This document shows positions 13,419 through 34,822 of a stretch of DNA of 64,000 nt, one piece after another. Each line of letters opens with the position of its first letter. Position 1 is the first letter of the stretch. Made by a program: the position numbers and the translations under genes. The notes below the pieces were generated by a model, which saw nothing but the letters and a program-made list of their open reading frames with translations, searched no databases and was not told where the DNA came from. Source of the DNA: Nitrospirota bacterium (GTDB taxonomy: Bacteria; Nitrospirota; Thermodesulfovibrionia; Thermodesulfovibrionales; Dissulfurispiraceae); assembly GCA_004321915.1 (NCBI GenBank), contig SCQE01000041.1:101191-165190 (forward strand). Direction: 5' to 3'.

Positions 13419-14261
13419 TTACGCTTCGACTTGAGATTTCTGTTCCAGATAGGTCGTTTTGACTTTTTCGGAAATTTCACCGAACTTTTCTTGGCTTAAT
13501 CCTAAGCGTTCAAGCTCTATATTGGTCAGTTCCGTGGATGAGCGCAACCCGATATTAAGGTTCAGGCATAAAGCGTCGGCTATTTTCACTATGAGACACT
13601 GGACCTCAAAGTCGTTGTCGCCCAACATAGCAAAATCTTCAGAATGATGGTATTCGATGACGGCTTCAAGGTTCTTCGGCAGCTTCCATTTTCGGGCAAC
13701 CAGCCCCCCGACATTGCAATGGTTAAAGCCGAGCATATCGTTCTCTGCCTCTAAAAAAGAAATGCCCTCGTCATACACCCTCTCTATGACCAACGAATAC
13801 GAATCCGGCATGCTGTTGTTCAGTATGGTCTTGCCGATGTCGTGAATAAGCCCCACAACGAGCGCTTCTTCCGCTGACATCAATCTTGTTTCAGCCGCGA
13901 GCGCCGAGGCCGCGATAGACACGCCCAAACTGTGGTCCCATAGACGCTGCTCGAACAACCCGAATTTACGGTGTATGTCCTTAAGGGATGCGGCAACAAC
14001 AAGGTTTTTCATCGTGTTCAAGCCGATCAATATTATAGCGGTCGAAACAGAGTCCACTTTTTTCCCTCTTCCGTAATAGGGAGAGTTGGCTATCTTAAGC
14101 AGCCGCGTTGAAAAAGACTGGTCTTGCGAGATGATCTTTTCTAGTTGGTTGATGGACGAAAAATCATCGTTCATCAGTTGCAGGACTTTGCTCGCAACTG
14201 TAGGAAGACTTGGGATATCGATAGTTTCGAGGACTATCTTTTCTAAAAGCTCTTCGTTCAA
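13419..14261 (-). CDS. HDOD domain protein
   Basis: IPSLPTVASKVLQLMNDDFSSINQLEKIISQDQSFSTRLLKIANSPYYG and a later HDIGK motif. Confidence 0.8.
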   Translation of the reverse strand: MNEELLEKIVLETIDIPSLPTVASKVLQLMNDDFSSINQLEKIISQDQSFSTRLLKIANSPYYGRGKKVDSVSTAIILIGLNTMKNLVVAASLKDIHRKFGLFEQRLWDHSLGVSIAASALAAETRLMSAEEALVVGLIHDIGKTILNNSMPDSYSLVIERVYDEGISFLEAENDMLGFNHCNVGGLVARKWKLPKNLEAVIEYHHSEDFAMLGDNDFEVQCLIVKIADALCLNLNIGLRSSTELTNIELERLGLSQEKFGEISEKVKTTYLEQKSQVEA

Positions 14262-14284: not shown

Positions 14285-14752
14285 TTATTCAAGCAGGGCC
14301 ACAGAATCGGATTTACCGAGCATCCTGTCTAGATCAAGAAGTATTATAAGCCTGTCTTCGAGCTTGGCTATGCCCCTCATAAACTCGGTGCTTATATTCG
14401 AGGCCATGGGAGGTGTCGGTTCCACGATGTTCCCCGGGATCCTGAGCACCTCCGACACAGAATCAACAACAACCCCCATAGTAATGCCTTCTATGTCCAT
14501 AATCATGATCCGCGAACGGGAATCCGGCTCTTTCGCAGCAAGATTGAACTTCGTCCTTATATTGATCACAGGAATGACTTTGCCTCGAAGATTCACAACA
14601 CCCTCGACATAGGCCGGAGAGTTGGGCACCCTCGTAATTTCGGTCATTCTGTTTATTTCCTGAACTTTAAGTATGTCAACCGCATATTCCTCGTTGTCCA
14701 GATTAAAAGTAACAAGTTGTAAAAGCTCTTCGGCTGAAGTCAGCGCCTTCAT
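14285..14752 (-). CDS. cheW: chemotaxis coupling protein CheW
   Basis: 155 aa forming a single CheW domain (FNLDNEEYAVDILKVQEI...VVNLRGKVIPVINIR). Confidence 0.9.
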   Translation of the reverse strand: MKALTSAEELLQLVTFNLDNEEYAVDILKVQEINRMTEITRVPNSPAYVEGVVNLRGKVIPVINIRTKFNLAAKEPDSRSRIMIMDIEGITMGVVVDSVSEVLRIPGNIVEPTPPMASNISTEFMRGIAKLEDRLIILLDLDRMLGKSDSVALLE

Positions 14753-14763
14753 TTATGACCCTC

Positions 14764-15828
14764 CTAAACAGCGTTAATTATTTCGCCGGCAATTTCTTCA
14801 AGAGATAATATCTTATCGGCAGTGCCTGCATCAACCACCGCTTTGGGCATTCCATAGACAACACAGCTTTCTTCGTTCTGCGCAAATATTCTTGCCCCGG
14901 TCCGCTTCATCTCGGCTATTCCTTTTGCCCCGTCATTCCCCATTCCTGTAAGTATAACACCGAGCGCCCTTCCCGGAAAAAGTTCTGCAACTGACAGCAT
15001 GAGCGCATCGACCGACGGGCGGTATATATAATCTTCCTTTGCTTCGGAAATGGAAATAACGGTCTCGAGTCCCCTCGGACGTCTGACCCTCATATGGCCC
15101 TTCCCGGGCGCGACATATGCGACACCGCCCTTGAGCACATCTCCCTCAGCAGCCTCTTTTACCGTTATTTCACTGAGCTGATTAAGCCTCTCTGCAAAGG
15201 GCCCCGTAAAATTGGCAGGCATATGCTGCGCGATGAGGATAGGCAACGGGAAATCCTTCGGCAGTTTAGGTATTATTTCCTGAAGAGCTTTAGGGCCGCC
15301 CGTTGACGTGCCTATCGAAACTACGCTCACCCGCCTGTCTCCGGTGATTTTTGACGGCATGGCCTTCGGGATTTCGTGCGCAGCCGCAGAGACGAGCGGT
15401 TTAGGAGAAACAGGGAGCCGCTTCTTAGGTCTGCCCTTCCTGCCTATCTGCTTTATCTTGTCCACCAGCATCTCTTTTATTTTCACGATATTGATGGAAA
15501 GGTCCGAAAGGTTCTTCGGTATGAAGTCAACCGCTCCGAGGTCGAGTGCGTCAAGGGTCACTTTGGCCCCGTCCGTGGTAAGAGAGCTGACCATGATTAC
15601 AGAAACAGGGTCACGCTCCATAATATGTTTTAGAGTGGTCAGCCCGTCCATCCTCGGCATCTCTACATCGAGAGTTATCACATCAGGCTTAAGCGACGCG
15701 ATCTTTTCGAGCGCGTCAATCCCGTCCCTCGCAGTGCCCACAATCTTTATCTCCGGATCGGACGAAATCATGCTGGTCAATGCGTTTCTCATAAACGCGG
15801 AATCATCGACAATAAGAACTTTAACCAT
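14764..15828 (-). CDS. cheB: chemotaxis response regulator protein-glutamate methylesterase
   Basis: REC domain (VLIVDDSAFMR...DVITLDVEMPRMDG) followed by the CheB catalytic domain (IGTSTGGPKAL, GMGNDGA). Confidence 0.9.
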   Translation of the reverse strand: MVKVLIVDDSAFMRNALTSMISSDPEIKIVGTARDGIDALEKIASLKPDVITLDVEMPRMDGLTTLKHIMERDPVSVIMVSSLTTDGAKVTLDALDLGAVDFIPKNLSDLSINIVKIKEMLVDKIKQIGRKGRPKKRLPVSPKPLVSAAAHEIPKAMPSKITGDRRVSVVSIGTSTGGPKALQEIIPKLPKDFPLPILIAQHMPANFTGPFAERLNQLSEITVKEAAEGDVLKGGVAYVAPGKGHMRVRRPRGLETVISISEAKEDYIYRPSVDALMLSVAELFPGRALGVILTGMGNDGAKGIAEMKRTGARIFAQNEESCVVYGMPKAVVDAGTADKILSLEEIAGEIINAV

Positions 15829-15843
15829 TAATCAAACCCCTTT

Positions 15844-18657
15844 TCAATATGCTTTATGTTCTTTCTTTATCTCTTCGAGATGATCTACGATCTGTTTGGA
15901 CAGGGTCAACATCTCCCTGTAAAATCCGTCAGCTTTGACCTTATCGCCGGACTTATAAGTCTCGGCCATCTGTCTGGCCAAGGCATGAAACCGCTCATGA
16001 GGAGGGTCTATCGATACAAAACTCGGGAGATTGCCGCATAAACGTTTTCCCTCAGTATCGTACCATTTGCCGAAGCGGCATGCGTGGTGGTCAGGAAGGC
16101 TGTTAAGATCCATATCGGCTTCCCCTCTCAAAAACGCCCCGACTTTTCCTACAAACAGCCTGTGGTCGGCTTTGGCCAAATCCAGCATAAGCAGCTCATT
16201 GCCGCCCACCTTGAATTTGATTGTAAGCACCCTCAGTTCTTCTGTCACCTTTATCAGACCGCTTACGTCATGCATGACCTTGACCGCCGTTTCCTTCTGG
16301 TCCGTTGCAATTCCGGCAGTCTTTTCCACATTCTTCGAGACCTCTTCGGCCGTCATCGTCTGATCTTCCATCGCAGTCGCTATCCTTGCTATCTGGTCTC
16401 CGACATTTTCTACGGAACTGACAATATTCAAAAGAGAATCGCCGACCTCTTTTATCTGTCCTGTGATCATATTGACTTGGTCCGAAGCGGTCTTCATCGA
16501 TTTGTTCGTCTGTCCGGCCTCGGTCTGCACCGCCCCTATTTTCTCGGATATTTCCCCTGTGGCCGCGATAGTCCTTTCGGCAAGTTTCCTTACTTCATCC
16601 GCAACTACGGCAAAACCCCTGCCCTGCTCCCCTGCCCTCGCAGCCTCTATCGCAGCGTTCAGGGCAAGAAGATTGGTCTGATCGGCAATGTCTTTTATTA
16701 CGGTCACTATCTCGCCGATCTCGCTTACCCGGCTATTCAGTTTGGTCATCATGGAAGAAAGTTCGAGTGTAGACTTGTGTACGGTCTCCACTGTCCTGAC
16801 AGCATTATCAGCCACCTGCTGCCCGGCATTGGCCACCTGCTTTGCATCGGAAGACGACCCGGCAGCGGAAGAGGCTGTCTTTGCTATATCGCCGAAGGTC
16901 TGGCTCATCTCCTCGGCCGCCGTAGCGATCTGATGGGCCTGTCCGGCCTGCTCCTGCGCGCCGTCCGAACTCTTCTGCGCCTCCTGTCTCAAACCGTCCA
17001 GCACCTGCACGGTTTCATTTACCGACGTCAATATCTTGCTTATGACATCGCTGAAAGACTGCATCATCTTCTGCATGCTCTGGGAAAGCTTTCCGATCTC
17101 GTCCTCGGATTGAGTTTCGAGTTTGCAGGCCAGATTGCCCGAGGCTATCTCATCCGCAACTTTTATGATAGCTTCGAGCGGTTTGTCTATAGAACGGTAT
17201 ATCCATACTCCAAAACCTATGCTCAACACTATGGCCGCTATGCTTATGGCGATAGTGAGTCCAAGGCTGAACCTTATCATACTGTTCACTGTGCCTATGG
17301 CCTTTTCCTGCTCTCCTTTTGCCGTGCTCACGGACTCTTTGCTCTTCTCCGCCTGCTTCAACACGATCTCGCGCAGTTTCGCCGTTGCCTCGGCCGCCTT
17401 TTCTTTCATTGTCAGGTCATGTTTGATCTTTTCCACAACCCCGTCTTTAGCAAACAAAAGGCTTTTTATAGAATTCAATGAAACCATAATCGCCTGAAGC
17501 GTTTTCAGCTCTTCCTTTGTGTCCAGTTGTTTCATCCCTTTATCGAGAAGTTTCTGCACATTTTCCGCACGTTCAAAGGATTTCTTCAAATCAACAACCA
17601 AAGGCTCGACCTCTTTGGGGCTGTTGACCGAAAAAAGCCTTGTAGACAAACCTTCTATAGAAAGACCTAACGCAAGCAGTTCCGAATTGCTCACAAGGAC
17701 ATTATTGGCAACGTTCGTCTGGCCGAATACATTTGTCTGTCGGCTCGATTCCGATGAATACTTTTCACTTGCATTGCCTGCTTCCTGTTCGACCGAAAGG
17801 CTCAGGACCGAAACCCGTTCCCCGATGTCCCTTTTCAGGTTTTCATACTGGTTCTTAAGGTCCTCAGTCTGCTGGGAAAGAAGGGCCATTTGGAGCTTTG
17901 TAATCTCCTCGATTTTCTCGCCTACGGACTTTAACTGCTTTGAATACTCTTTCTGCGTCTGGACATAATCTATCTGCTGTCCCTTTGATAAGGTAGCATT
18001 GGCCTTGCTCCTGCCGATTATAAGGCTCTTTTTATCTGAGGCTTTTTGCAGTTCGACAAAGACAAGCTGGAGATCTTTGATGATAAGTTTTAAAGACTCA
18101 AGGTCCTTAAGCTTGGTAGTGATATTCTTCGTATCTTCCATGGAAGATACTAGGGCGCCCTGCCTGTTCAACTGCAAGGACTTGATCTTGGCATCGAGCT
18201 CTTTAAGTTTTTGCGAAGACTCCTTCATCTTCTGCGTAATGGCCTTATTGGCAATATGCGCCTCTTCTTCTGCCTTTATCTTGTTTTCGCTGATATTAAA
18301 AATCTCGGCGCCGATCTTATGCAATTCCTCACTTACACCTATATTGGCCCCGCCCGTAAGCGCATCGAGAGAACTCTGCGTATTTTTGACCTCGTCGAGC
18401 GATTTTTCGGCCTCTGTCCTCAGGTTCTTGTAGTCGTTTACATTGTCCGCCAGCACAACCTTAATGAGGTCCGAAGTCGCTCCCTGAATAGCACGCTGAA
18501 ACTCCACCGTCCTCAACTGGAAAGGAGTGCTCCTCTCTGTGAGGTATGAAAGCTTGTTCTTCACAAAGTTCATCCCGACAACGCTTGTGCCCGCGACCGC
18601 ACAGAGTATGGCCAGAACCAGAACCAGATTCAGTGTAAGCTTTCTTTTTATAGTCAT
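15844..18657 (-). CDS. methyl-accepting chemotaxis protein with a roughly 430-aa periplasmic helical sensor, HAMP, a signalling domain and a C-terminal CZB zinc-binding domain
   Basis: Two TM segments at about residues 8-30 and 460-487. Highly conserved hairpin [38 protein letters not shown]. The C-terminus carries [10 protein letters not shown]...[11 protein letters not shown]...HERFHAL, the 3His/1Cys CZB pattern. Confidence 0.85.
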
Positions 18658-18689
18658 AATTTACGTCCCACTCCAAACTTAATTTAATT

Positions 18690-18720
18690 GCCGGCATTCG
18701 CAGGCGCACGAACGCCCGGC
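18690..18720 (-). terminator. GC-rich stem-loop between the binding-protein gene and the MCP gene (possible attenuator)
   Basis: GCCGG...CCGGC outer pairs and GGCG-CACGAA-CGCC inner pairs. There is no strong U-tract. Confidence 0.25.
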
Positions 18721-18730
18721 ACTCGAAAAA

Positions 18731-19486
18731 TTACTTAATATACTTCGGGCCTTCCGTCTTAATAAAATCAAGAAGTTTTTGCACATTGGCCGAAGGCGCC
18801 CCCTTGGTCACAAGTATGAGAGGTCTTCCGACTTCTGGCGTCTCAGGGACCTTGATCTTATCGTCGGACATAATGATCGGACCAAAGCCTATGCCCTCAG
18901 GCGTATCTATGATCTGCTTTTTAACATCATCGGCCGTATTTACTTCAAGAACATCCTTTGTAGCCGCCTCGCCGTCAAGGATATTTTTTGTAAACAGACT
19001 GTTCGTGCCTGTTGAGAGTTTTCCCCATACGACTATGATCGGGGTGTCTTTGCCTCCCACATCCTTCCAGTTTACCACCTTGCCCGTAAATATGCCTTTA
19101 AGCTGGTCTTTGCTGAGTTTGGCTATGCCGTTCGATTTATTAAGAAACACGATCATCTTGTCTTTAGCTATGACAACGTGCTTGTAAGCCGACGGGTCGC
19201 CTGCGTTCATATTCTCTTTTTTAGCTATATTCATAAGCCCTTCGAAATCCACGTCCGCGGTGGACGCATCTACAGAGCCTTTCAGAAGCTCGGCAAATGC
19301 ATGCTTGGAGCCGACCTTAAGAAAATTGATCTTTAATCCGGTGGCCTTCTCAAACGGCTCCTTGATAGGTTTGATAACAGTGGATTCGACGGTCCCCCCG
19401 CCTGCCAGCTTTAGCTCGGAAGCCGTGGCAGAAGAGGCCCAAACCAATAGACATATCAGTACGAAAACCTTTACGAAACTTTTCAT
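18731..19486 (-). CDS. periplasmic substrate-binding protein, PstS/PBP_like_2 family (orphan, no transporter partner nearby)
   Basis: Signal peptide, and LSKDQLKGIFTGKVVNWKDVGGKDTPIIVVWGK typical of the phosphate-binding-protein family. Confidence 0.7.
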   Translation of the reverse strand: MKSFVKVFVLICLLVWASSATASELKLAGGGTVESTVIKPIKEPFEKATGLKINFLKVGSKHAFAELLKGSVDASTADVDFEGLMNIAKKENMNAGDPSAYKHVVIAKDKMIVFLNKSNGIAKLSKDQLKGIFTGKVVNWKDVGGKDTPIIVVWGKLSTGTNSLFTKNILDGEAATKDVLEVNTADDVKKQIIDTPEGIGFGPIIMSDDKIKVPETPEVGRPLILVTKGAPSANVQKLLDFIKTEGPKYIK

Positions 19487-19504
19487 GCTCTTTCCCCCTT
19501 TAAG

Positions 19505-20257
19505 CTACTTTTTGATATATTGGGCGCCGGCGCCCTTCATAAAATCTATCAGTTTCTTCACGTTTGCGGACGGCTCGCCTTTGGTGACTATAATAATAGG
19601 ACTTAACAACGCCGGAGTTTCCGGGACCCTGACGGATTGGTCGGCAAGCCCTATGGGGTCTATGCCTATGGCCTCAGGAGTGGTTGATACGCTCTCTTTT
19701 ATGCTTGCATAATCCGTGACGTCAAACACCTCTTTGATGACCTTCTCCCCATCGAGGATCTCCTTTACAAACTGGGCGTTCTGTCCCGGCGTTGCCTTTC
19801 CCCACACAACTATAATGGCCCCGTCCTTTCCGCCGACCTCCTTCCAGTTGTTGATCTTTCCTGTAAATATGCCCTTAAGCTGGTCCTTGGAAAGTTTGGG
19901 AACCATATTGCTTTTATGAAGCAGTATCGCGGTCCTGTTCTGCGCCACTTCAGTTTTTTTAAAATCTGCGGCATTGACCTTCACTCCGTCTTTCTCGGCC
20001 CCGCCTATCATGCTTTCAATAGAAACAGCGGCAACGGCAGCATCGACCTTTCCATTCGCAAGCTCAATAAAACCGTGTTTAGGAGTGCTCTGAAACAGCG
20101 ACAAATTAATTCCCGACGCCTTTTCAAAATGAGGCTGCACCGGTCTGAAAGCGGTATTCATGGCCGCCCCGCCCCCGCCGATCCTGATCTCTTCGGCAAA
20201 AGCGTTTAAAGAAACAAGCATAAAAACAACCGTAGCGACACACAACAGTCTTCTCAT
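19505..20257 (-). CDS. periplasmic substrate-binding protein, PstS/PBP_like_2 family (tandem paralogue)
   Basis: Collinear with the neighbouring gene. Shared blocks are KLSKDQLKGIFTGK, IIVVWGK, ILDGE, VPETP and VTKGxPSANVxKLxDF. Confidence 0.7.
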   Translation of the reverse strand: MRRLLCVATVVFMLVSLNAFAEEIRIGGGGAAMNTAFRPVQPHFEKASGINLSLFQSTPKHGFIELANGKVDAAVAAVSIESMIGGAEKDGVKVNAADFKKTEVAQNRTAILLHKSNMVPKLSKDQLKGIFTGKINNWKEVGGKDGAIIVVWGKATPGQNAQFVKEILDGEKVIKEVFDVTDYASIKESVSTTPEAIGIDPIGLADQSVRVPETPALLSPIIIVTKGEPSANVKKLIDFMKGAGAQYIKK

Positions 20258-20283: not shown

Positions 20284-21480
20284 TTAAAAACCGAAATCTT
20301 TAAGCAGATCATCGACGCCTTCCTGAGAGACCTGCTCGGCCTTAACGGCTTCCGCCTTTACCCCTGCGTCAACCTTCACTCCGAACGTGGTTATCAACTT
20401 CACAAGCTCATCCTCTATCTCGCTGACAAGCGTTATGACTTTTTTTATGGTTTGCCCTGTCAGGTCCTGAAATGATTGTGTGGTCAATATTTCGGTAAAG
20501 TCATCTTCGAGCTTATTTTTAAAATCTTTTATGTAGACAACCGATTCCTCGGGCCCGGTAAGGTTTCTGATATGTGAGGCAAGGTCATCCATCACGAGGA
20601 TATTGTTCTCTACTATCCCCATAGTCTTATTGGCAGCCTCTTCGGTCTTCTCTATAACATATTTAAGCCTGTCAACGGCATTAGGCATCTCTGAGGAAGC
20701 CATGTCCTTAAGCCTCGGATCGAGGGCTTCTTTGAAGCTCCTGATGGAATCGTGAAGCTTCCTCGTGACCTTGCCGACCTCTTTGAAGAGATCGCTCTGT
20801 CCTTTGTTCATTATATTCTGGATGGCTTCATCCGCCTTATCGTAATCCTGTCCGGTGACTGAATTCATAAAAGAAACCATTTCATCGAACAGAGCATAAC
20901 GAGGGTCATCGACCGCTATGCCCTTCTTTTCGAAAAATTCTTTTGCATCGTGAATTTCACGAACGACCATCTCTCCGCCCATGCCTTCTATCTTCTTGAC
21001 AACCTCCACCTTGTCGCCGATCTGCTCTCCGACCTCGTATATCTGGTCCTCAAAAAGACTTGCGTCCTCGACAGGTATAAGTTTTTTTGTGTCGAGCAGG
21101 ACAATAAGCCTGTCGTCAACCTTTGCTACGCCCTCGACCTGCGCAATGTGGGTCTGCATAAAATTCTCGGCAGGTTCTATTGCATTCTGTTCTATGGTCA
21201 CCACGCCGGTTATGCCGTCAACCAGCACACCGAAAGTCATCCTGCCGCTCGTAACCACTATGACCTTCTCCGTCGTAATCTCGGATATCTCTCCGAAAAG
21301 GCCTACAAGTTTTTTGAGGTTGACCACGGGTATTATACGGCCCCTCAGATTTGTGACACCCTCGATATAATCCGGCGACTGGGGAAGTTTCGTTATGGAA
21401 GGCAGATTTATTATTTCCTGCACCTTCAAGATCGGAATCGTGTATTCATTGCCCGACATGGTAAACCCTATATACTGCAT
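20284..21480 (-). CDS. CheW-domain / CheZ phosphatase fusion protein
   Basis: Residues 1-150 form a CheW domain (EYTIPILKVQEI...VTNLRGRIIPVVNLKK). The C-terminal half has DRLKYVIEKTEEAANKTMGIVE, the CheZ active-site block SFQDLTGQTIKKV and the CheY-binding tail SQEGVDDLLKDFGF. Confidence 0.8.
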   Translation of the reverse strand: MQYIGFTMSGNEYTIPILKVQEIINLPSITKLPQSPDYIEGVTNLRGRIIPVVNLKKLVGLFGEISEITTEKVIVVTSGRMTFGVLVDGITGVVTIEQNAIEPAENFMQTHIAQVEGVAKVDDRLIVLLDTKKLIPVEDASLFEDQIYEVGEQIGDKVEVVKKIEGMGGEMVVREIHDAKEFFEKKGIAVDDPRYALFDEMVSFMNSVTGQDYDKADEAIQNIMNKGQSDLFKEVGKVTRKLHDSIRSFKEALDPRLKDMASSEMPNAVDRLKYVIEKTEEAANKTMGIVENNILVMDDLASHIRNLTGPEESVVYIKDFKNKLEDDFTEILTTQSFQDLTGQTIKKVITLVSEIEDELVKLITTFGVKVDAGVKAEAVKAEQVSQEGVDDLLKDFGF

Positions 21481-21502: not shown

Positions 21503-23311
21503 TTATTTATTTACGGTGGCGAATATGGTGCGGGAAATCACAGCAAGGTCGAGTATCAAAACAACGCGGCCGTCTCCTGTTATTGTGGCCCCTAATATTC
21601 CGCACTCTTCGGACTCTATCCCGTTTATCATCTTGATCACTATTTCTTCCTGACCTAGAAGTTCGTCGACCGACATACAGAACCGTCTGTCGCCTACAAG
21701 CGCAACGAGCAGATACCTGTTTTCCGTGTCCAACATCTGCCTGTTACGCACACCCAGAATTTCCGACATATCGAAAAGAGGTATCACCCTGCCTCTTATA
21801 GTCAGGACCTTCTGTTTGGTCACATCCTTTATATCGCTCTTTTTGACCCTGAGCGTCTCCTCGATCATAGACTGAGGAATAGCGTAATATTCTTCACCGA
21901 TACGCACCATCATAGCTTGCAGTATCGCCAAGGTAAGAGGCAGGCTTATGCGGAAGGTCGACCCTACATCTTTCTTTGTCATGACCTCGCAATAGCCGTT
22001 CAGTTTGGCCACGTTGGTTTTAACGACATCCATTCCCACGCCGCGTCCGCTGAGTTCTGTGGAGACCTCTTTGGTCGAGAAACCCGGGAGGAATATCAGA
22101 TTAATGGCCGAATCGTCCGACATTTTCAAGGCCTCGTCCTCGGTTATCAGTCCGTTTTTAATGGCCTTACGTTTAACGGCGTCAACGTCTATCCCCTTCC
22201 CGTCATCCGCCACCTCTATGATAATCTGAGTGCCTTTCTGTTCGGCGCTGAGTATGATCCTGCCCTTTCTTGGTTTGCCTTTTTTCTCCCTTTCGTCGCT
22301 GAACTCTATCGCATGGTCTATCGAATTTCTTATGATGTGGACCAAGGGATCGCCTATATTCTCTATGACCGTCTTGTCAACTTCGGTCTCTTCGCCGAAC
22401 ATCTCAAGATCTATGTCTTTGCCTAGGGTGCGGGACATGTCCCTGACCATTCTGGGAAACTTGCCGAACACTTTTTGAATGGGCTGCATCCTCATCTTCA
22501 TTACGGCAAGCTGGAGATCGGAGGTCACTCTGTCCAAAAATGCTGTGGTCTCCAGCATGCTTTCCACGTTTCTGTCGCCTGAATAACTTGCATCAAGCTT
22601 GGCCGCAAGGTTCAGTAATCTGTTTCTCGCAAGAACGATTTCGCCCGCAAGATCCATGACCTTATCTATCCTAGATACATCGACCCTGAGGTTTGCCACC
22701 ACTTCCTTTTCTTTGGATATTTGCTGGACCGTCTCCTCGGCAGGAGCAGGAGCAGCCGGTCTTTTTTCTTCTTTGGGTTCAGTTTTGCTTTCGGTCACGG
22801 CAGAAAACTGGACCGGTTCCGCCTCCTGTTTTGCCTGTTCGGGCTTCTGCTCTTCCGCTGCAGAAGAAGTAACGGGTGCGGCCTGCGTTTCAGCCGCAGC
22901 GGCAGGCGCGCTGCCTGCAGACACCGCAGTATCCAGCGCGAGATCGAGTCTGCCGGTTATGCCTGAAATGTCCTCCTCAACCCCATCCTTGATCTTGACA
23001 TGATGGATCAAAGACCTGAGGACATCGACACTCTGGAAAACAACATCCATCAACTCACGCGAAAGGGCTATTTCGCCTTCACGAAGTTTCTTCATGATAC
23101 TCTCGGACCTGTGGGCCACATCGACAATCTGCTGAAAGCCTAGAAAACCGGCAGCGCCCTTAAGAGTATGCATGCCCCTGAATATTTCGTTAAGTATGTC
23201 CTTGTCGTGCCCCCTCGTTTCGAGCTCGACGAACATGGGGTCTATCTTTTCTATCGTCTCTTCGGCTTCGGTGACAAATTCGGATATTATTTCATCCATT
23301 TCATCAGCCAT
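21503..23311 (-). CDS. cheA: chemotaxis histidine kinase CheA (no recognisable P2 domain)
   Basis: Hpt motif FRGMHTLKGAAGFLG, an Ala/Pro/Glu-rich linker, a dimerisation domain, HATPase (DDGKGID, GRGVGMDVV) and a C-terminal CheW-like domain. Confidence 0.9.
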   Translation of the reverse strand: MADEMDEIISEFVTEAEETIEKIDPMFVELETRGHDKDILNEIFRGMHTLKGAAGFLGFQQIVDVAHRSESIMKKLREGEIALSRELMDVVFQSVDVLRSLIHHVKIKDGVEEDISGITGRLDLALDTAVSAGSAPAAAAETQAAPVTSSAAEEQKPEQAKQEAEPVQFSAVTESKTEPKEEKRPAAPAPAEETVQQISKEKEVVANLRVDVSRIDKVMDLAGEIVLARNRLLNLAAKLDASYSGDRNVESMLETTAFLDRVTSDLQLAVMKMRMQPIQKVFGKFPRMVRDMSRTLGKDIDLEMFGEETEVDKTVIENIGDPLVHIIRNSIDHAIEFSDEREKKGKPRKGRIILSAEQKGTQIIIEVADDGKGIDVDAVKRKAIKNGLITEDEALKMSDDSAINLIFLPGFSTKEVSTELSGRGVGMDVVKTNVAKLNGYCEVMTKKDVGSTFRISLPLTLAILQAMMVRIGEEYYAIPQSMIEETLRVKKSDIKDVTKQKVLTIRGRVIPLFDMSEILGVRNRQMLDTENRYLLVALVGDRRFCMSVDELLGQEEIVIKMINGIESEECGILGATITGDGRVVLILDLAVISRTIFATVNK

Positions 23312-23312
23312 C

Positions 23313-23729
23313 TTAGCCCCCTGCCTTCAAAGATTTCTTTTTGTCCGCGATCTTGTCCAGTTTCTCTTTAAGGACTTCCGCTGTAAACGGCTTGACTATA
23401 TAGTTGTCGACTCCGGCCTTAATGGCTTCTATTACTTTTTCTTTTTCGGCTTCGGCAGTGACCATAAGCACCGGTATATCCTTTATTTTATCGTTAGGCT
23501 CTTTTCTAAGGTTTCTAAGCAGGTCTATGCCTTCCATTACAGGCATGTTCCAGTCGGTCACAAGAAGGCCAAAACCACCAGCCCGCAGCTTATCCAAGGC
23601 CTGCTGTCCGTTTTCAGCCTCTTCGATATTTTCGAATCCTATCTGCTTCAGAAGGTTCTTGACTATCCTTCTCATAGTCGGGAAGTCGTCAACCACAAGC
23701 ACTTTAAGGGTCACATTCAAATTAGACAT
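23313..23729 (-). CDS. cheY: chemotaxis response regulator CheY
   Basis: [18 protein letters not shown]...[13 protein letters not shown]...NYIVKPF. The ATG at 23729 is preferred over the GTG at 23744 because it follows an AGGTGGAGG ribosome-binding site. Confidence 0.85.
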
Positions 23730-24114
23730 CAGCTGCACCTCCACCTTTGAACATTTTTTTAAGTATCTTTTTTATCCCGTCAGTTATCTGTTCAGCATTG
23801 GTAGGCTTTACGAGATAATCGTCTACACCTGCCTCAAACGCTTTCTTCTTCTCGTCCTCATCGGCCTCGGTGGTGACCATGATAATCGGCATGCCCGACA
23901 AAGCAGGGTCTTTTCTTACGGTTTTCGTAAGTTCAATCCCGTCCATGTACGGCATGTTCATATCCGATACTATAAGGTTTATGCCTTCCGTGCCTATTTT
24001 TTCCAAGGCCTCCAACCCGTTCTCGGCAGTCACAATCTCGTAGCCCTTGCCTTTAAGGTAAAGAGACAGCAGTTTTCTTGTAGTCTTGTCGTCATCAACG
24101 ATCAGTATTTTCAT
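23722..24114 (-). CDS. single-domain CheY-like response regulator
   Basis: [16 protein letters not shown]...[13 protein letters not shown]...DYLVKP. Confidence 0.8.
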
Positions 24115-24142: not shown

Positions 24143-24973
24143 TCATACTTTTTGATAAACGATTACCTTGTTGATAATTACCGGCCTGAAAGCCCTTGTA
24201 ATATTATGCAGACTCTCGGAAGTGCCGACAAAAAGATAACCGTTAGGTCTCAACGCGTCATACATCAAAGAAACAGCCTTTTGTTTGGCCTTCTCATCAA
24301 AATATATCAGGACGTTCCGGCAGAAGATGACATCAACGCCCCTTACGGCCCTGACGTCCTTGTCATCCATAAGATTTATCTTCATGTACTTGACCATCGA
24401 TTTGACGGATGAAGAAAGCTGGTACTGCTGATTCGTAACGCTGAAATATTTCTTCATATAGAGCTCCGATATATTCCTGACCGCATACGAACCGTATGAT
24501 GCGGCCTTTGCCGAAGCCAGCACGGATTCGCTGATATCGGAAGCATATATCTCGGTCCTGAGGGCTTTTGCCTCGGGTTTTTCGAGAAGGAGCATGGCTA
24601 TTGTATAAGGCTCCTCCCCTGTGGAGGAAGCGGCGCACCATATCTTGATGTCCCTGCGTCCGCCCTTTGCGTTCTCAGCGGTTATGCGGTTAAAGAGTTC
24701 TCCGGTAAAAACATCGAACTGCTGCGGCTCCCTGAAAAAAAATGTTTCATTTGTAGTGACCAGATCGAAAAGCTTGACCATCTCGTTTTTGTCAGCCCCG
24801 AATTTGACCACATAAAGATAATCCTCATACCCTTTAAGGCTTTTCTCCTGCACCCTTCTGCCGAGCCTGTTTTCAAGAAAATATTTCTTATTATCGGGGA
24901 TGAATATCCCGCTCTTTTCGTATATGAAATCACGGATCTGCTTAAAAATGTCTTCGGTCATGACAAGGTTCAT
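24143..24973 (-). CDS. cheR: chemotaxis protein methyltransferase
   Basis: CheR N-terminal helical domain followed by the SAM-binding fold (IWCAASSTGEEPYTIAMLL, IFCRNVLIYFD). Confidence 0.9.
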   Translation of the reverse strand: MNLVMTEDIFKQIRDFIYEKSGIFIPDNKKYFLENRLGRRVQEKSLKGYEDYLYVVKFGADKNEMVKLFDLVTTNETFFFREPQQFDVFTGELFNRITAENAKGGRRDIKIWCAASSTGEEPYTIAMLLLEKPEAKALRTEIYASDISESVLASAKAASYGSYAVRNISELYMKKYFSVTNQQYQLSSSVKSMVKYMKINLMDDKDVRAVRGVDVIFCRNVLIYFDEKAKQKAVSLMYDALRPNGYLFVGTSESLHNITRAFRPVIINKVIVYQKV

Positions 24974-26865
24974 ATCGCGTCCAGCGCCTCCCTTATCTTC
25001 TCTCTGACATCGGGATTGTGATGCTCCTCATAGACGCTCAAAACCTCATAAGCCTCTCTGCCGCCGATGTTCGAAATCGCGTCTATAGCGGACATGACAA
25101 CCGGAATAAATTCATCTTTAAGCATGTCCTTTATCAATTCCAGCGACCTTTCTCTGTCGCAAGAAAAACCGACACTCTTTATCGTATAAAACCTCACCCA
25201 TGGGTCCGAGTCGTGAAGAGCGTTTATCAACTCCTGTGAACAGTAACCCGCCTCACCCAGACCGACAACAGCGGCCCTTCTGATATCGGCATCGCTGTCC
25301 GAAAGAAATGACGAAAGTTTTAGCAGCGCCTCCGCAGTGCCGACCTTGCCCATGCTGTGTATTGCCGAGCTTTTTACGTTTTTTGCGTCGTCTTCGGAAA
25401 GCTTGAACAGCACTCCCAGATCCATGACTGTGTCAGCTATTATCTCCTTGACTACCACATTGTACCCGTCTATGCCGGCAAGAAAAGATCCGGGGTCTAT
25501 GTTTAAAAGGGCCTTTACTATTCTTTCAAGCACATCCCGGTACCGCTCAACTTCCATAAGTTCAAGCAAAGGCTTTACCGCAGCCTTCGACTTTATATTG
25601 CCTAGGGCATCTATAGCGGTGCGCCTGACATGAGCATCGACATCCTGATAAGAAGCGTCCAAGAGACCTTTAATAGCATCCGGGGCAGGGTCCTTAATTT
25701 CCCCTAGCGCCTCTGCGGACGCCCTTCTAAGGTCTCTGCGCATGTCGTTAAGATAATTCAACAACCTTGAAACCGCCTTTTTGCTCCCCGCCTCTCCTAA
25801 TATTTCTATCGCAAAAGACTTCCCGCGATATCTGAGATCCTGCGAGTCGAGAAGTTTGATCAGTTCGTCTTCGGAATCGATAGACATAAGGGTGTTCTTG
25901 ACGTCAAACAGTCTTTCTTCATTGCCGGGCATCGAAGGATCGAGAGAGCCCGCTATATCTACGAGAAGGGGCACCGCCCCCGTACATTTGAGATCAACTA
26001 TACCTTTCAGCGCCACTTCCCTGTCATCCCAGTCGCCCTCTTTGAGCATAGGGAGCAGATGACAGGATATTTCGGACATATCGGGCGTTACTCCGATCTG
26101 TATCAGGCTCTTTATAACAGCATTCTTTTCGTCATCCGACGCCTTTGCTAGATATCCCCTCAAAAAATCACTGCCTTTCGAGGAACCTATCTGTCCTAAC
26201 GTTTCTATCGCAACGAACCTTACAGCCTCGGAGCCTTTTTCTAAAAGGGCAGCAATACTTTCGACCGATTCCTCCGCTTTCAAGAGACCGAGAGACTCCA
26301 GCGCAGAAAAACAGACCCATTCTTCATCGTCAAGCGCTTCTACAAGATAAGGCAAAGCCTCCATATATCCGAGCAGTCCTACCGCTTTTGCCGCAGCCGA
26401 ACGCGCATTGGCATTCGGGTCCTTAAAACTCGGTAAAAGTCTGGACGCATCTACACCGGTAATTATCTCCCCCAAAAGATCGATAGCGAATTTTCTTACA
26501 TCTTCGTCTTTATCTTTAAGCAGGGCATAAAGCAGCGGCACAGAGATTTCACCTAAATCCCTGAGTATGATCAAGGCGGTGTTTCTAAGCAGGGTATTCT
26601 CTCTAAGCAGCGGAAGCACCATATAGGCAGTAACTTCGCCGCCTATAGCCATGAGTGACCTCATAGCCGCGTCTTGGACCCCTGCATTGTCGTCATTGAG
26701 GCATTTAATCAGAGGATAAACGGCCCTTTCATCGGTTTCAGAGAGGTCCTCGACAGCCGCCCTTCTTACCGAGGCATCATTGTTTGACAGCTTTTGAATC
26801 AGTTTCTTGATATTCTTAGCCATCTTTCGTCCCTTCATTAATCGAAATTTACCAAAATTCATCAA
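24970..26865 (-). CDS. HEAT-repeat (PBS-lyase-type) protein, first gene of the che operon
   Basis: Repeated units of about 30 aa of the type DxxVRxxAxxALGxIG along the whole length. ATGA overlap with the cheR start. The real start may be the MAKNIKK ATG at 26823. Confidence 0.75.
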   Translation of the reverse strand: MMNFGKFRLMKGRKMAKNIKKLIQKLSNNDASVRRAAVEDLSETDERAVYPLIKCLNDDNAGVQDAAMRSLMAIGGEVTAYMVLPLLRENTLLRNTALIILRDLGEISVPLLYALLKDKDEDVRKFAIDLLGEIITGVDASRLLPSFKDPNANARSAAAKAVGLLGYMEALPYLVEALDDEEWVCFSALESLGLLKAEESVESIAALLEKGSEAVRFVAIETLGQIGSSKGSDFLRGYLAKASDDEKNAVIKSLIQIGVTPDMSEISCHLLPMLKEGDWDDREVALKGIVDLKCTGAVPLLVDIAGSLDPSMPGNEERLFDVKNTLMSIDSEDELIKLLDSQDLRYRGKSFAIEILGEAGSKKAVSRLLNYLNDMRRDLRRASAEALGEIKDPAPDAIKGLLDASYQDVDAHVRRTAIDALGNIKSKAAVKPLLELMEVERYRDVLERIVKALLNIDPGSFLAGIDGYNVVVKEIIADTVMDLGVLFKLSEDDAKNVKSSAIHSMGKVGTAEALLKLSSFLSDSDADIRRAAVVGLGEAGYCSQELINALHDSDPWVRFYTIKSVGFSCDRERSLELIKDMLKDEFIPVVMSAIDAISNIGGREAYEVLSVYEEHHNPDVREKIREALDAI

Positions 26866-33512: not shown

Positions 33513-33782
33513 CTATCTCACATAGAGCGGTATATTTTCAAAAATGTTTCTGGTAAACGAAACCATAATTTTGACCATCCACGGCAATGCGATCAAAAGC
33601 GTCAAAAAAACGGCGATTATCTTTGGCACGAATGTTATTGTAGCCTCCTGAAGCTGAGTCATGGCCTGAAAAAAGCTGATTAAAATACCTATAACAAGAC
33701 TGGCAACCAGAACCGGTCCGCCAACCATCAAAACCGTTTCGAACGTCTGCTTTGATATCTGTTGAAGGAGCTCGACCGTCAT
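33513..33782 (-). CDS. fliQ: flagellar export apparatus protein
   Basis: 89 aa with two TM segments and the conserved FQAMTQLQEATITFVPK. Confidence 0.9.
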   Translation of the reverse strand: MTVELLQQISKQTFETVLMVGGPVLVASLVIGILISFFQAMTQLQEATITFVPKIIAVFLTLLIALPWMVKIMVSFTRNIFENIPLYVR

Positions 33783-34822
33783 CTAAAACTCCCTATCAAA
33801 GAACCTATGATAAGCTCCCACCCGTCAGCCAATACAAACAAAAGAAGTTTCACGGGCAATGAGACCATAACAGGCGGGAGCATCATCATACCCATAGCAA
33901 GCAAAATACTGCCGACAACCATGTCAATAACGAGAAAAGGCAAATAGATAAGAAATCCTATCTCAAAAGCTTTCTGAAGTTCTCCGATAGCAAAAGCAGG
34001 GACAACAACCTTCATTGGTAAATCCATGGGGCTTGCAGGCCTTTCGCTCTTTGAAATCTTTAAGAAAAGCGCCAGATCCTTTTCCTTGGTCTGTCTAAGC
34101 ATAAATTCTTTTAGAGGCACACTCGCCTTGTTCAACGCAGTTTCAGCATCAATCTGTTTTTTAGTATATGGTAGATAAGCCTCTGAATATACACGGTCAA
34201 ATACTGGCGACATTATAAAAAAAGTGATGAAAAGCGCCAATCCTATCAAAACTGTATTAGGGGGGGCTTGAGGCGTGCCCATAGCCTGTTTTAGAAAGGA
34301 CAAAACAACTATTATTCTTGTAAAACATGTACACATAACCAACATTGCAGGCAAAATTGACAACAAAGTAAAAAAAAGTAATATCTCAAGCGGTGAATTA
34401 AGTCCGAGTATCCCCCCACCTACAGCAGGCGGTGCAGGTGCGCAAAAAGCGGTTTCGGAAAATAAAAGACCGCATAAAAACCAAAATGAAGAAAATATAA
34501 GTTTTCCTTTGTTTTTAAACAAATCTTTTATACTAAAACTCTGTACATTATTTTCTGTCATTACATTTAGTGATGCTTCTGCAACTTTGGGATTTAACTT
34601 ATCTATCAAGGAAACATTTTGATCGCCTATACCCAAAACAAAATACTCATCCAGAACTTTAACTATTCCTATGCCTCGTTTTGTTCCCAAGGGATAAAAA
34701 TATATTAAATCTATAAAACCTTTTTGTGGCATTACCCTTTGTTTTATCAGACGTAAGAACATATATAATCCGGCAAGTATAATTATCAGAACAAGCAGAA
34801 TTTTCAACACCTCAAAAGCCAA
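33779..34822 (-). CDS. fliP: FliO-like N-terminal module fused in frame to FliP
   Basis: Residues 1-85 have a TM segment plus LIYFYPLGTKRGIGIVKVLDEYFVLGIGDQNVSLIDKL (FliO pattern). A second hydrophobic, signal-like segment follows (FWFLCGLLFSETAFCA), then the FliP core (TRIIVVLSFLKQAMGTPQAPPN). Confidence 0.8.
   Translation of the reverse strand: MAFEVLKILLVLIIILAGLYMFLRLIKQRVMPQKGFIDLIYFYPLGTKRGIGIVKVLDEYFVLGIGDQNVSLIDKLNPKVAEASLNVMTENNVQSFSIKDLFKNKGKLIFSSFWFLCGLLFSETAFCAPAPPAVGGGILGLNSPLEILLFFTLLSILPAMLVMCTCFTRIIVVLSFLKQAMGTPQAPPNTVLIGLALFITFFIMSPVFDRVYSEAYLPYTKKQIDAETALNKASVPLKEFMLRQTKEKDLALFLKISKSERPASPMDLPMKVVVPAFAIGELQKAFEIGFLIYLPFLVIDMVVGSILLAMGMMMLPPVMVSLPVKLLLFVLADGWELIIGSLIGSFR

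Follow-up and report, generated by a model that had tools for sequence, protein, structure and literature searches.

Few model systems are known in which periplasmic binding proteins mediate indirect chemoreception. In Pseudomonas aeruginosa, PstS and the chemoreceptor CtpL together mediate chemotaxis to phosphate (Rico-Jimenez et al. 2016, PMC4926252; PMC8050422), and the CtpL sensor is a helical bimodular domain (PMC8050422). According to a 2021 review, chemoreceptor-stimulating binding proteins of E. coli and P. aeruginosa have their genes alongside those of transporters rather than those of chemoreceptors, and its sole examples of binding proteins encoded next to a chemoreceptor are archaeal (PMC8050422). 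A full-text literature search found no paper on PstS-like genes beside MCP (methyl-accepting chemotaxis protein) genes in Nitrospirota or Geobacter, and a paper on Geobacter che clusters does not mention binding proteins (PMC2577667). Here we characterize two PstS-like proteins, termed PBP-A and PBP-B, encoded beside an MCP gene in a Nitrospirota bacterium; we consider it likely that they are dedicated, transporter-independent periplasmic sensor proteins for this MCP that derive from PstS.

The two genes sit in a che operon within a flagellar cluster of the window, the whole 64-kb stretch of DNA that was analyzed (Table 1). The earlier note had described two ~250-aa paralogues in tandem between the CheW-CheZ and MCP genes, on the same strand with short gaps, and this arrangement was confirmed: both are exact open reading frames (ORFs) on the minus strand, the neighboring domains are recognized by Pfam, and the successive gaps measure 26 nt (CheW-CheZ/PBP-A), 18 nt (PBP-A/PBP-B) and 73 nt (PBP-B/MCP); these gaps yielded no terminator-like site on the minus strand. 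The CheW-CheZ fusion is conserved in five Nitrospirota che operons (L001, L085, L165, L166, L168). We make no claim for the stem-loop in the PBP-B/MCP gap as an mRNA-stability or attenuation element, because the region folds no better than shuffled sequence (z = -0.41 over a 96-nt stretch). The remaining ORFs of the window are flagellar, regulatory and housekeeping genes, assigned mostly by Pfam and otherwise by phmmer or by reading their first residues. Neither an ABC permease nor an ATPase had been noticed in the window, in agreement with our searches of it: phmmer returned no match to PstC, PstA or PstB seeds within the 64 kb, and the LSGGQ motif is absent from all of its ORFs.

Table 1 Features of the che operon in the window (positions are those of the window)
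Feature	Position	Strand	Basis or remark
HEAT-repeat protein, operon head	24970..26865	-	Conserved in related operons
CheR methyltransferase	24143..24973	-	
Two CheY-like receiver proteins	23313..24114 (23313-23744, 23722-24114)	-	Pfam annotation
CheA histidine kinase	21503..23311	-	Pfam annotation
CheW-CheZ fusion, directly upstream of PBP-A	20284..21480	-	Pfam CheW + CheZ
PBP-A, PstS-like binding protein, "A-type" subfamily	19505..20257	-	250 aa; ORF and translation; predicted secreted
PBP-B, PstS-like binding protein, "B-type" subfamily	18731..19486	-	251 aa; ORF and translation; predicted secreted
Stem-loop, PBP-B/MCP gap	18689..18721	-	13-bp stem; centroid fold about -20 kcal/mol
Methyl-accepting chemotaxis protein (MCP)	15844..18657	-	937 aa; Pfam HAMP, MCPsignal, CZB; NCBI TAN44304
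MCP periplasmic sensor domain (~aa 31-459), proposed docking surface	17281..18567	-	All-helical AF2 model
MCP HAMP domain (aa 485-534)	17056..17205	-	Pfam
MCP signalling domain (aa 601-782)	16312..16857	-	Pfam
MCP C-terminal CZB (chemoreceptor zinc-binding) domain (aa 832-897)	15967..16164	-	Pfam
CheB methylesterase	14764..15828	-	Pfam annotation
CheW	14285..14752	-	Pfam annotation

PBP-A (NCBI TAN44306) and PBP-B (TAN44305) each have hundreds of homologues and are thus real genes, members of a family of about 270 clusters at 50% identity. They are 45% identical across their full length (E 5e-78), and every sequence element previously reported for them is present in the translations: both contain the blocks KLSKDQLKGIFTGK, IIVVWGK, VPETP and VTKGxPSANV, while GGGT and LSTGT occur in PBP-B and TPGQN in PBP-A. 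A recent tandem duplication was rejected as the origin of the pair in view of this identity level and of their placement in separate clades that each span phyla, the A-type clade taking in Nitrospirota and Geobacter members. The signal peptides that had been proposed are consistent with the N-termini as read from sequence, which run in Sec-like fashion from a basic start through a hydrophobic core to ATA|SE or AFA|EE; throughout the family, the Ala at the cleavage site and the Glu that follows hardly vary.

Family and structure comparisons place both proteins in the PstS fold, as the earlier note had proposed. Pfam PBP_like_2 (PF12849) matches PBP-B with 78 bits and PBP-A with 55 bits (cut-off 27), and the AF2 model of PBP-B (pLDDT 91.8), with an intact two-lobe hinge fold, retrieves short PstS structures as its top Foldseek matches (4EXL, 1TWY, 9L8J and 4Q8R; best PDB matches at E 1e-20 to 1e-16). 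An assignment of ligand by homology to TupA, ModA or Sbp was dropped, as NCBIfam gave no match of either protein to TupA, ModA, WtpA or Sbp/CysP at E<0.01, none was among the top Foldseek matches, and a molybdate-type protein (4KD5) ranked only 44th. PBP_like_2 and TIGR02136 being the best family matches, and NCBI naming both proteins "phosphate ABC transporter substrate-binding protein", the plainest reading would be an ordinary phosphate-uptake PstS that serves a pstCAB system elsewhere, its che position incidental or reflecting moonlighting as in PstS-CtpL. However, the scores for the PstS-specific models fall under half of their cut-offs, at 94.7 bits for PBP-B and 85.6 bits for PBP-A against 206.6 for TIGR02136 and 26 bits against 205 for TIGR00975 (PstS). 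Furthermore, the genes are co-oriented, across short gaps lacking any terminator-like site, with motility genes and not with phosphate-starvation genes.

The binding pocket separates the family from canonical PstS more sharply. We aligned 155 family members with 112 PstS proteins encoded next to pstC/pstA (among the matches listed) at E. coli PstS positions 8-11, 38-39, 56-57, 134-137 and 139-142; numbering by the E. coli sequence used as reference agreed with published positions, and the columns of the canonical group were in line with expectation. An equivalent of Arg135 was found in 0 of the 155 family members and in all 112 transporter-linked PstS proteins (among the matches listed), and Gly occupies the position in PBP-A, PBP-B and 140 of the 155. 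Similarly, position 139, which is Ser in 112/112 canonical proteins (among the matches listed), is mostly Pro in the family, in which position 8 is Gly throughout (155/155) and Trp134, Lys136 and Asn142 are near-invariant, unlike in canonical PstS. At most other phosphate-ligating positions the canonical side chain has given way to residues that are specific to each subfamily. PBP-A (signature GGAA/PK/AV/WGKA/PGQN) carries A10, P38, A56, P139 and Q141 at phosphate-ligand positions and so has lost nearly every PstS ligand. In PBP-B (GGTV/SK/DV/WGKL/TGTN, a signature common to about 16 sequences, namely PBP-B itself (P0001) and P0002-P0015) the pocket is only partly diverged, since the equivalents of Thr10, Ser38, Asp56 and Gly140-Thr141 are kept, with Thr at the Ser139 position, a retention that speaks for the phosphate-uptake reading. 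The suggestion that the anion-binding loops have diverged therefore holds for the family through Arg135 and almost in full for PBP-A, and only in part for PBP-B. Judged on these comparisons, PBP-A and PBP-B are not ordinary PstS proteins, and a role in routine phosphate uptake appears very improbable. The ligand of PBP-A is probably not orthophosphate; a possible ligand of PBP-B is a tetrahedral oxyanion similar to phosphate, bound in a modified manner, and because most PstS-like hydroxyl and Asp ligands are retained in PBP-B, phosphate sensing is still conceivable for it. Within subfamilies the pocket residues are strongly conserved across phyla, and they differ between subfamilies (Trp134-Gly-Lys136, Asn142, Lys39), a crispness that argues for selection on distinct ligands.

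To place the pair in its wider genomic setting, we collected 34 family loci with sequence patterns; since many come from related Nitrospirota, the counts that follow are not phylogenetically independent. A receptor whose ~430-aa helical sensor domain is homologous to that of the window MCP (roughly 140-500 bits) lies within 3.5 kb of the binding-protein gene in 24 of the 34 (among the matches listed), in Nitrospirota, Geobacter, Geomonas, Caldimicrobium, Margulisbacteria and Gammaproteobacteria. By contrast, pstC/pstA occurred within 3.5 kb of none of the 34, and no importer gene of any kind was linked to a family gene in them (both among the matches listed). Canonical PstS proteins, which made up the bulk of the genome and metagenome scan matches listed, at lower scores than the family, and served as the control group, were nearly all surrounded by PstCAB-PhoU. 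The orphan status assigned to the pair in the window is thereby extended to the family, and the phosphate-uptake reading loses further ground. As for the gene order, whose conservation had been put forward as a check, L166 likewise has an A-type gene followed by a B-type gene upstream of its MCP, and sampling in reverse, from the receptor side, placed a binding protein directly upstream of the receptor in three of four cases, the exception (L171) having only a rhodanese there. A secreted rhodanese also adjoins the receptor in L001/L002, L004 and L166, although not in the window; we note this neighbor as a hint at a sulfur ligand, and as a lead only.

Such linkage could arise if PBP-A and PBP-B bound a solute for some importer of the ABC, TRAP or another type, or for a periplasmic metabolic process, and were merely co-regulated with the receptor, which would sense its own ligand directly. 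Consistent with this, the MCP sensor domain has room for ligand sites of its own, family members in L010, L019, L087 and L092 have neither a receptor nor a transporter nearby, and the L171 receptor lacks a binding protein. Indeed, a receptor is missing from 10 of the 34 loci (among the matches listed), and one subclade is orphan (L008, L087, L092 and L093, plus L010 and L016), so the fold does not strictly require this receptor as a partner. Nevertheless, the genes adjoin a single family of sensor domains in four phyla or more. This adjacency occurs inside flagellar che operons of Nitrospirota (L001, L085, L165, L166 and L168) and equally in isolated two-gene units amid unrelated genes (L003 from Margulisbacteria, L167, L169, and L170 from Geomonas), where co-regulation with motility explains nothing. 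Duplicated pairs moreover diverge together, with binding-protein/sensor-domain scores of 257/395 and 106/167 in L006 and of 367/391 and 108/172 in L165. Given these patterns and the lack of linked importers in the 34 loci, we regard the importer or metabolic explanation as unlikely. Domain fusions were also considered as "Rosetta stone" support and set aside: the long profile matches (P0311, P0328, P0336, P0364 and others) consist solely of PBP_like_2 domains repeated in tandem, lack signaling domains and add no support.

The MCP itself is a transmembrane receptor with a periplasmic sensor domain. Hydrophobic segments at ~aa 8-30 and 460-487 flank the ~430-aa helical domain, which is followed by HAMP and MCPsignal domains; the C-terminal CZB domain is absent from most of its 816-817-aa relatives and is shared by the L007 receptor. 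No Pfam family matched aa 1-480 at E<0.1, so the domain does not match HBM (PF16591). Its AF2 model (pLDDT 88) is all-helical and includes helices 77 and 97 residues long, and in Foldseek it most resembles, weakly, the McpZ ligand-binding domain (8F7N; E 1e-6, TM ~0.3-0.37) and TorS in its complexes with TorT (3O1I/3O1H; E 5e-3 to 0.1, probability 1.0, TM 0.35-0.56). These structural matches are weak (TM 0.3-0.56), and the domain could also bind ligands directly. On the other hand, TorS docks TorT, and together with the conserved receptor linkage across phyla, inside and outside che operons, the resemblance supports the earlier note's proposal of indirect chemoreception through the neighboring MCP.

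Taken together, since the family adjoins one receptor type in several phyla and a transporter in none of the 34 loci, the proteins are most likely chemotaxis antennae dedicated to catching ligands. We hypothesize that PBP-A and PBP-B are exported via the Sec pathway and that each captures a small ligand by closing its two lobes around it. The loaded protein, or a constitutive complex reshaped upon loading, would then dock on the helical periplasmic domain of the MCP, shifting its control of CheA and thereby steering flagellar rotation. Since the subfamily-conserved pocket residues of the two paralogues differ, they probably provide one receptor with two ligand specificities. It may be asked whether a ligand is involved at all: having lost most canonical ligand contacts, the proteins could be pseudo-binding proteins that stay bound to the MCP sensor domain at all times and modulate receptor activity or the assembly of the array, and ligand-free binding to the sensor is described for certain binding proteins, TorT with TorS among them (PMC8050422). 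The pocket positions are, however, not degenerate; they are conserved by subfamily as expected of functional, specific sites, and the high-confidence model retains the complete two-lobe hinge fold, which makes a ligand-free co-receptor quite unlikely.

A broader and more tentative picture, which we hold possible though doubtful, is that of an undescribed, multi-paralogue family of PstS-derived sensors that has lost its transporter, recognizes non-phosphate anions, and duplicates as a two-gene module in co-evolution with a new, very long helical receptor domain, the receptor serving as a periplasmic hub. If so, this receptor would be the hub of core flagellar chemotaxis in anaerobic sulfur- and iron-cycling bacteria, with A-, B- and C-type binding proteins, the secreted rhodanese and a Tll0287-like protein as its inputs, and the ligands might be sulfur species, giving taxis toward electron acceptors or donors. 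More immediately, the widespread annotation as phosphate transporter components would be corrected by a PstS-derived family that had abandoned transport for coupling to a single type of receptor, with its Nitrospirota genes placed within the core flagellar che operon. The family also offers a concrete target for ligand discovery in the chemotaxis of poorly studied anaerobes, including the genetically tractable Geobacter and Geomonas, and its naturally occurring pocket variants, which share one scaffold and a proposed docking partner, lend themselves to studies of the evolution of specificity and docking.

Compared with known systems, PBP-A and PBP-B are closest in fold and size (~250 aa) to the short (S-type and D-type) PstS proteins 4EXL, 4Q8R/4GD5, 1TWY and 9L8J, which are also their nearest PDB relatives by sequence (E 1e-13 to 1e-8), at an identity of just 21-24%. 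In short PstS proteins with a described phosphate site (C. perfringens PBP-1 and Sll0540), an Arg stabilizes the bound phosphate (PMC13614923), whereas the family described here carries a Trp-Gly-Lys motif instead, with Gly in the place of Arg135. On the receptor side, the best structural match to the MCP periplasmic domain is McpZ of Sinorhizobium meliloti (8F7N), a chemoreceptor sensor built of several helical modules over a long span, at only 11% identity and a TM of about 0.3-0.37. TorT-TorS, and likewise LuxP-LuxQ, also comprise a transporter-independent binding protein encoded beside its receptor, and TorS has a helical stacked-bundle sensor that is among the top, if weak, structural matches of the MCP sensor; in these systems, however, the output is a histidine kinase rather than an MCP, and TorT belongs to Peripla_BP_1. 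In PstS-CtpL, as proposed here, a PBP_like_2 protein signals through a chemoreceptor, and the CtpL sensor is a stacked helical bundle, an architecture that the all-helical MCP model may share. P. aeruginosa PstS is nonetheless a true transporter component, encoded with pstCAB rather than with ctpL, induced by phosphate starvation and binding phosphate at 9 nM, whereas PBP-A and PBP-B have no transporter and no Arg135, their genes lie beside the receptor gene in a che operon, and the ~430-aa sensor domain of the MCP has no Pfam match at E<0.1, HBM (PF16591) included. The BasB-BasT and CosB-CosT systems of Halobacterium salinarum differ in being archaeal, in using Peripla_BP_6 and OpuAC binding proteins with dCache-like sensors, and in responding to amino acids and quaternary amines (PMC8050422). 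They nevertheless share the gene arrangement seen here, a binding-protein gene directly upstream of a transducer gene, and BasB and CosB appear to be dedicated to taxis (PMC8050422), as we propose for PBP-A and PBP-B.

The PBP-A and PBP-B genes lie in a long flagellar region on the minus strand of the window, whose central block reads, in transcription order, FlhA, FlhF, FlhG, FliA, a HEAT-repeat protein, CheR, two CheY-like proteins, CheA, a CheW-CheZ fusion, PBP-A, PBP-B, the window MCP, CheB, CheW, an HDOD protein, FlgF, FlgG, FlgA and FlgH. Both genes therefore sit in one co-oriented string with cheA, cheW-cheZ, cheB and cheR, with surrounding gaps of 26, 18 and 73 nt and a GGAGG-like ribosome-binding site ahead of each gene. 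No terminator-like site was found on the minus strand between the CheW-CheZ, PBP-A, PBP-B and MCP genes. A 13-bp stem-loop in the last gap is statistically no different from shuffled sequence. The two proteins share 45% identity (E 5e-78), carry Sec signal peptide features at their N-termini (read from sequence) and are labelled “phosphate ABC transporter substrate-binding protein” at NCBI, in a Nitrospirota metagenome-assembled genome. Within the 64-kb window, phmmer seeds for PstC, PstA and PstB and a search for the LSGGQ motif returned no matches, and the other ORFs are flagellar, regulatory and housekeeping genes. An earlier sequence-only note had described two signal-peptide-bearing paralogues closely spaced between CheW-CheZ and MCP, on the same strand, with no ABC permease or ATPase in the window; since its quoted sequence blocks all recur in the translations, the gaps are short and ABC genes are absent, that observation holds in every detail.

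Coordinates of the features discussed (L-numbers are handles of other genome or metagenome loci compared)
Feature	Locus	Position (strand)	Remark
PBP-A	window	19505-20257 (-)	250 aa; TAN44306
PBP-B	window	18731-19486 (-)	251 aa; TAN44305
MCP	window	15844-18657 (-)	937 aa
CZB of MCP	window	15967-16164 (-)	aa 832-897; zinc-binding
Stem-loop	window	18689-18721 (-)	PBP-B/MCP gap
CheW-CheZ fusion	window	20284-21480 (-)	
	L001	8427-9614	
	L085	4693-5889	
	L165	5694-6890	
	L166	4850-6046	
	L168	1879-3054	
HEAT-repeat protein	window	24970-26865 (-)	631 aa; heads che operon, 4-nt overlap with cheR
HDOD proteins	window	13419-14261 (-), 52802-53656 (+)	one closes che operon
Apparent FliO-FliP fusion	window	33779-34822 (-)	FliO aa 34-96, FliP aa 151-342
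Lowest-GC part	window	34-36 kb	GC 0.37; holds FliO-FliP ORF
Rhodanese (~158 aa)	L001	10862-11338	adjoins receptor
	L004	958-1437	adjoins receptor
	L166	8554-9027	adjoins receptor
	L171	3412-3888	adjoins receptor
Tll0287-like (PF11845)	L166	7770-8513	
Lactamase_B/ODP	L001	15066-15857	oxygen-binding di-iron protein
HAMP-PAS-GGDEF-EAL locus	L086	5974-9492	
GAF fusions	L018, L089	7433-9799, 2-2020	
Binding-protein fragments	L005	1-1021	contig end

Both proteins match Pfam PBP_like_2, and an AlphaFold2 model of PBP-B (35 homologues as input; mean pLDDT 91.8) retrieved short PstS structures as its top PDB matches (4EXL, 1TWY, 9L8J, 4Q8R and 4GD5; E 1e-20 to 1e-16; 21-24% identity), demonstrating the PstS fold and bearing out the family assignment made previously. 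PBP-A and PBP-B descend from PstS and differ from ordinary PstS, scoring 86 and 95 bits, respectively, on the NCBIfam PstS-family model, for which the cut-off is 206.6. When 1.84 billion cluster representatives were searched with a profile, 269 clusters fell in the family (E<=1e-30), a moderate size among the >10,000 PstS-like clusters in the same search.

The genomic surroundings of the family were compared across 34 loci, comprising the window, 14 representative-genome and 10 metagenome loci (both among the matches listed) and 9 exact look-ups (from the binding-protein side, L001-L004 and L165-L167). ORFs were annotated by phmmer, the seeds being window sequences together with PstC, PstA, PstB and PhoU of a canonical Romboutsia locus. 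A receptor sharing a homologous periplasmic domain with the window MCP (~140 to 500 bits) lay within 3.5 kb, and mostly directly adjacent, in 24/34 loci, a count that is phylogenetically non-independent because sampling was pattern-seeded and many loci are related Nitrospirota. No PstC or PstA was detected with these seeds near the family gene at any of the 34 loci. Proteins below ~85 bits among the scan matches listed were canonical PstS; PstC-PstA-PstB-PhoU surrounded nearly all of them, which provides an internal control. Conversely, of four receptors taken from a sensor-domain search solely for their long contigs, three were directly preceded by a binding protein and the remaining one (L171) by a secreted rhodanese alone. 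At the loci surveyed, the family is linked to no transporter, and its linkage to one sensor-domain family is both conserved and reciprocal.

The pair recurs in the same flagellar che operon of other Nitrospirota (L001, Dissulfurispira thermophila; L085, L165, L166, L168), as an isolated two-gene unit amid unrelated genes (L003, from Margulisbacteria, ordered MCP-PBP-MCP; L167; L169; L170, Geomonas silvestris), and in Caldimicrobium (L004), a MAG labelled Ectothiorhodospiraceae (L014) and Geobacter and Geomonas (L009, L011-L013). Several paralogues per receptor are common (L006, L009, L011, L088, L089, L090), and the SBP-SBP-MCP order, whose conservation the earlier note had proposed checking, reappears in L166, where an A-type and next a B-type gene precede that of the receptor. 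In the tandem pairs of L006 and L165, the more divergent binding protein accompanies the more divergent sensor domain (257/395 vs 106/167 and 367/391 vs 108/172 for binding protein/sensor domain), suggesting that the two duplicate and diverge as a unit. Simple co-regulation with the receptor, without docking, accounts poorly for this co-divergence and for two-gene modules spanning phyla, and we consider it unlikely. An intermediate PstS-like clade (87-111 bits) is likewise encoded beside MCPs, with 4HB_MCP_1 sensor domains in 3/3 examined. No receptor was found nearby in one subclade (L008, L087, L092, L093, plus L010 and L016) or in L019.

Three further arrangements were observed. In L086, a membrane HAMP-PAS-GGDEF-EAL protein takes the place of an MCP after the family binding protein, and c-di-GMP signalling may be another output of the family. 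GAF replaces the MCP signalling domain as fusion partner of the window-type helical periplasmic domain in L018 and L089; CheR-like, CheB-like and receiver genes come after, and a PstS-like gene adjoins. The closest relative (L005, Nitrospirae bacterium MYbin3; 93% identity) has binding-protein fragments on both strands beside an inverted cheW-cheZ, which looks like an assembly artefact.

We aligned 155 family members with 112 canonical PstS (from the same database scans, each adjoining pstC or pstA), 11 intermediate proteins and what we take to be the E. coli PstS sequence, whose numbering reproduces the published T10, S38, D56, R135 and S139-T141. Canonical PstS carried Ser8 (107/112), Ser or Thr at 10 (most), Ser38 (109/112), Gly39 (99/112), Ser56 (100/112) or Asp56 (12/112), Gly or Ser at 134 (most), Glu136 (91/112), Arg142 (64/112), and Arg135, Ser139, Gly140 and Thr141 (112/112 each). 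The family instead carried Gly8 (155/155), Ala10 (127/155), Pro38 (128/155), Lys39 (144/155), Gly56 (126/155), Trp134 (136/155), Gly135 (140/155; Arg 0/155), Lys136 (114/155), Pro139 (105/155) and Asn142 (152/155), keeping Gly140 (143/155) and Thr141 (127/155). The PstS phosphate site has thus been lost. Given this loss, the sub-cut-off scores and the absence of PstC and PstA from the surveyed loci, it is very unlikely that these are ordinary PstS working for a distant transporter, and their present annotation is probably wrong.

The replacements are not random decay, since crisp subfamily signatures hold across phyla: GAAP/PK/GL/WGKL/PGTN (Main type), GSTS/SK/[AG]H/[IV]SNL/PG[TS]N (C-type), GGAA/PK/AV/WGK[A/N]/PGQN (A-type, to which PBP-A and other proteins from Nitrospirota as well as Geobacter belong) and GGTV/SK/DV/WGKL/TGTN (B-type, PBP-B and its 15 closest relatives); the family tree is a simple neighbour-joining one. 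Such strong conservation of pocket positions, subfamily by subfamily, also makes a ligand-free structural co-receptor improbable. The claim that the anion-binding loops are diverged stands for the family at large and for PBP-A, in which PstS-like pocket residues are almost all gone, and less so for PBP-B, which has lost the Arg and kept Thr10, Ser38, Asp56, Thr139, Gly140 and Thr141. The gain of Lys39 and Lys136, the conservation of Asn142 and Trp134 and a Gly140-Thr141 helix cap still in place suggest that the ligand may be an anion, for PBP-B possibly a phosphate-like tetrahedral oxyanion.

In the window MCP, hydrophobic segments (~aa 8-30 and 460-487) bracket a ~430-aa periplasmic domain; HAMP, the MCP signalling domain and, at the C-terminal end, CZB come next. 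No Pfam family matched the periplasmic domain at E<0.1. Its own family numbers at least 266 proteins, for the most part MCPs of 816-817 aa, in Nitrospirota, Geobacteraceae and Desulfuromonadales. On a comparison by eye, at least 15 of its listed matches have a longest contig equal in length to that of a listed binding-protein match. The AlphaFold2 model of the domain (pLDDT 88) is all helical, with helices up to 97 residues, and among PDB structures comes closest, at low TM-scores, to the sensing domain of McpZ (8F7N; E 1e-6) and next to the TorS sensor domain crystallised with the binding protein TorT (3O1I, 3O1H, 3O1J). Binding-protein signalling via a stacked helical bundle is known from TorT-TorS and PstS-CtpL (PMC8050422), receptors of the same general architecture, and by this analogy docking of PBP-A and PBP-B on the sensor domain is plausible.

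On the basis of comparative genomics and predicted structures, both proteins would be exported, each holding a small ligand in its cleft and modulating CheA by docking on the sensor domain of the MCP. By analogy with RBP and GBP, two binding proteins that extend the ligand range of one receptor, Trg, the paralogues most likely widen that of a single receptor.

A rhodanese gene lies between binding protein and receptor in Dissulfurispira (L001) and Caldimicrobium (L004), and in L166 immediately ahead of the receptor; N-termini are signal-peptide-like in both translated copies (L001, L004). Rhodanese may serve as another type of periplasmic accessory sensor; as a lead only, its presence hints at sulfur compounds as ligand. 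In L166, the Tll0287-like gene separates the two binding-protein genes from that of the receptor, alongside genes for rhodanese and hemerythrin. The ODP gene beside further MCPs in the Dissulfurispira operon suggests that che operons of this kind have a part in redox or oxygen sensing. CZB also occurs in the L007 MCP; most receptor relatives are of the shorter form without it, several (L165, L166, L167) with a hemerythrin gene alongside, and the cytoplasmic accessory sensor may be swapped between CZB and hemerythrin. The CheW-CheZ fusion (391-398 aa), kept in all related Nitrospirota che operons examined, would anchor CheY phosphatase at the receptor array, and the HEAT-repeat gene holds an equivalent position in L001, L005, L015, L085, L165 and L166.

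Indirect chemoreception via binding proteins is a well-known principle, and PstS-CtpL offers a direct precedent for the PstS-type fold in chemoreception; the idea will not surprise a chemotaxis specialist. The linkage is unusually clean, and tractable Geobacter and Geomonas relatives open the system to direct testing. A literature search found no published description of this PstS-like family or its receptor domain, no NCBIfam model matches PBP-A or PBP-B above cut-off and the receptor domain lacks a Pfam family. From sequence comparison, the proteins appear to form a dedicated sensor family that derives from PstS, works with no transporter and is coupled to a helical sensor domain not described before. 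According to a review of the field (PMC8050422), genes for the chemoreceptor-stimulating binding proteins of E. coli and P. aeruginosa accompany those for transporters and not those for chemoreceptors, and its only chemoreceptor-adjacent cases are archaeal BasB/BasT and CosB/CosT; in Nitrospirota, the binding-protein/receptor pair forms part of the core flagellar che operon.
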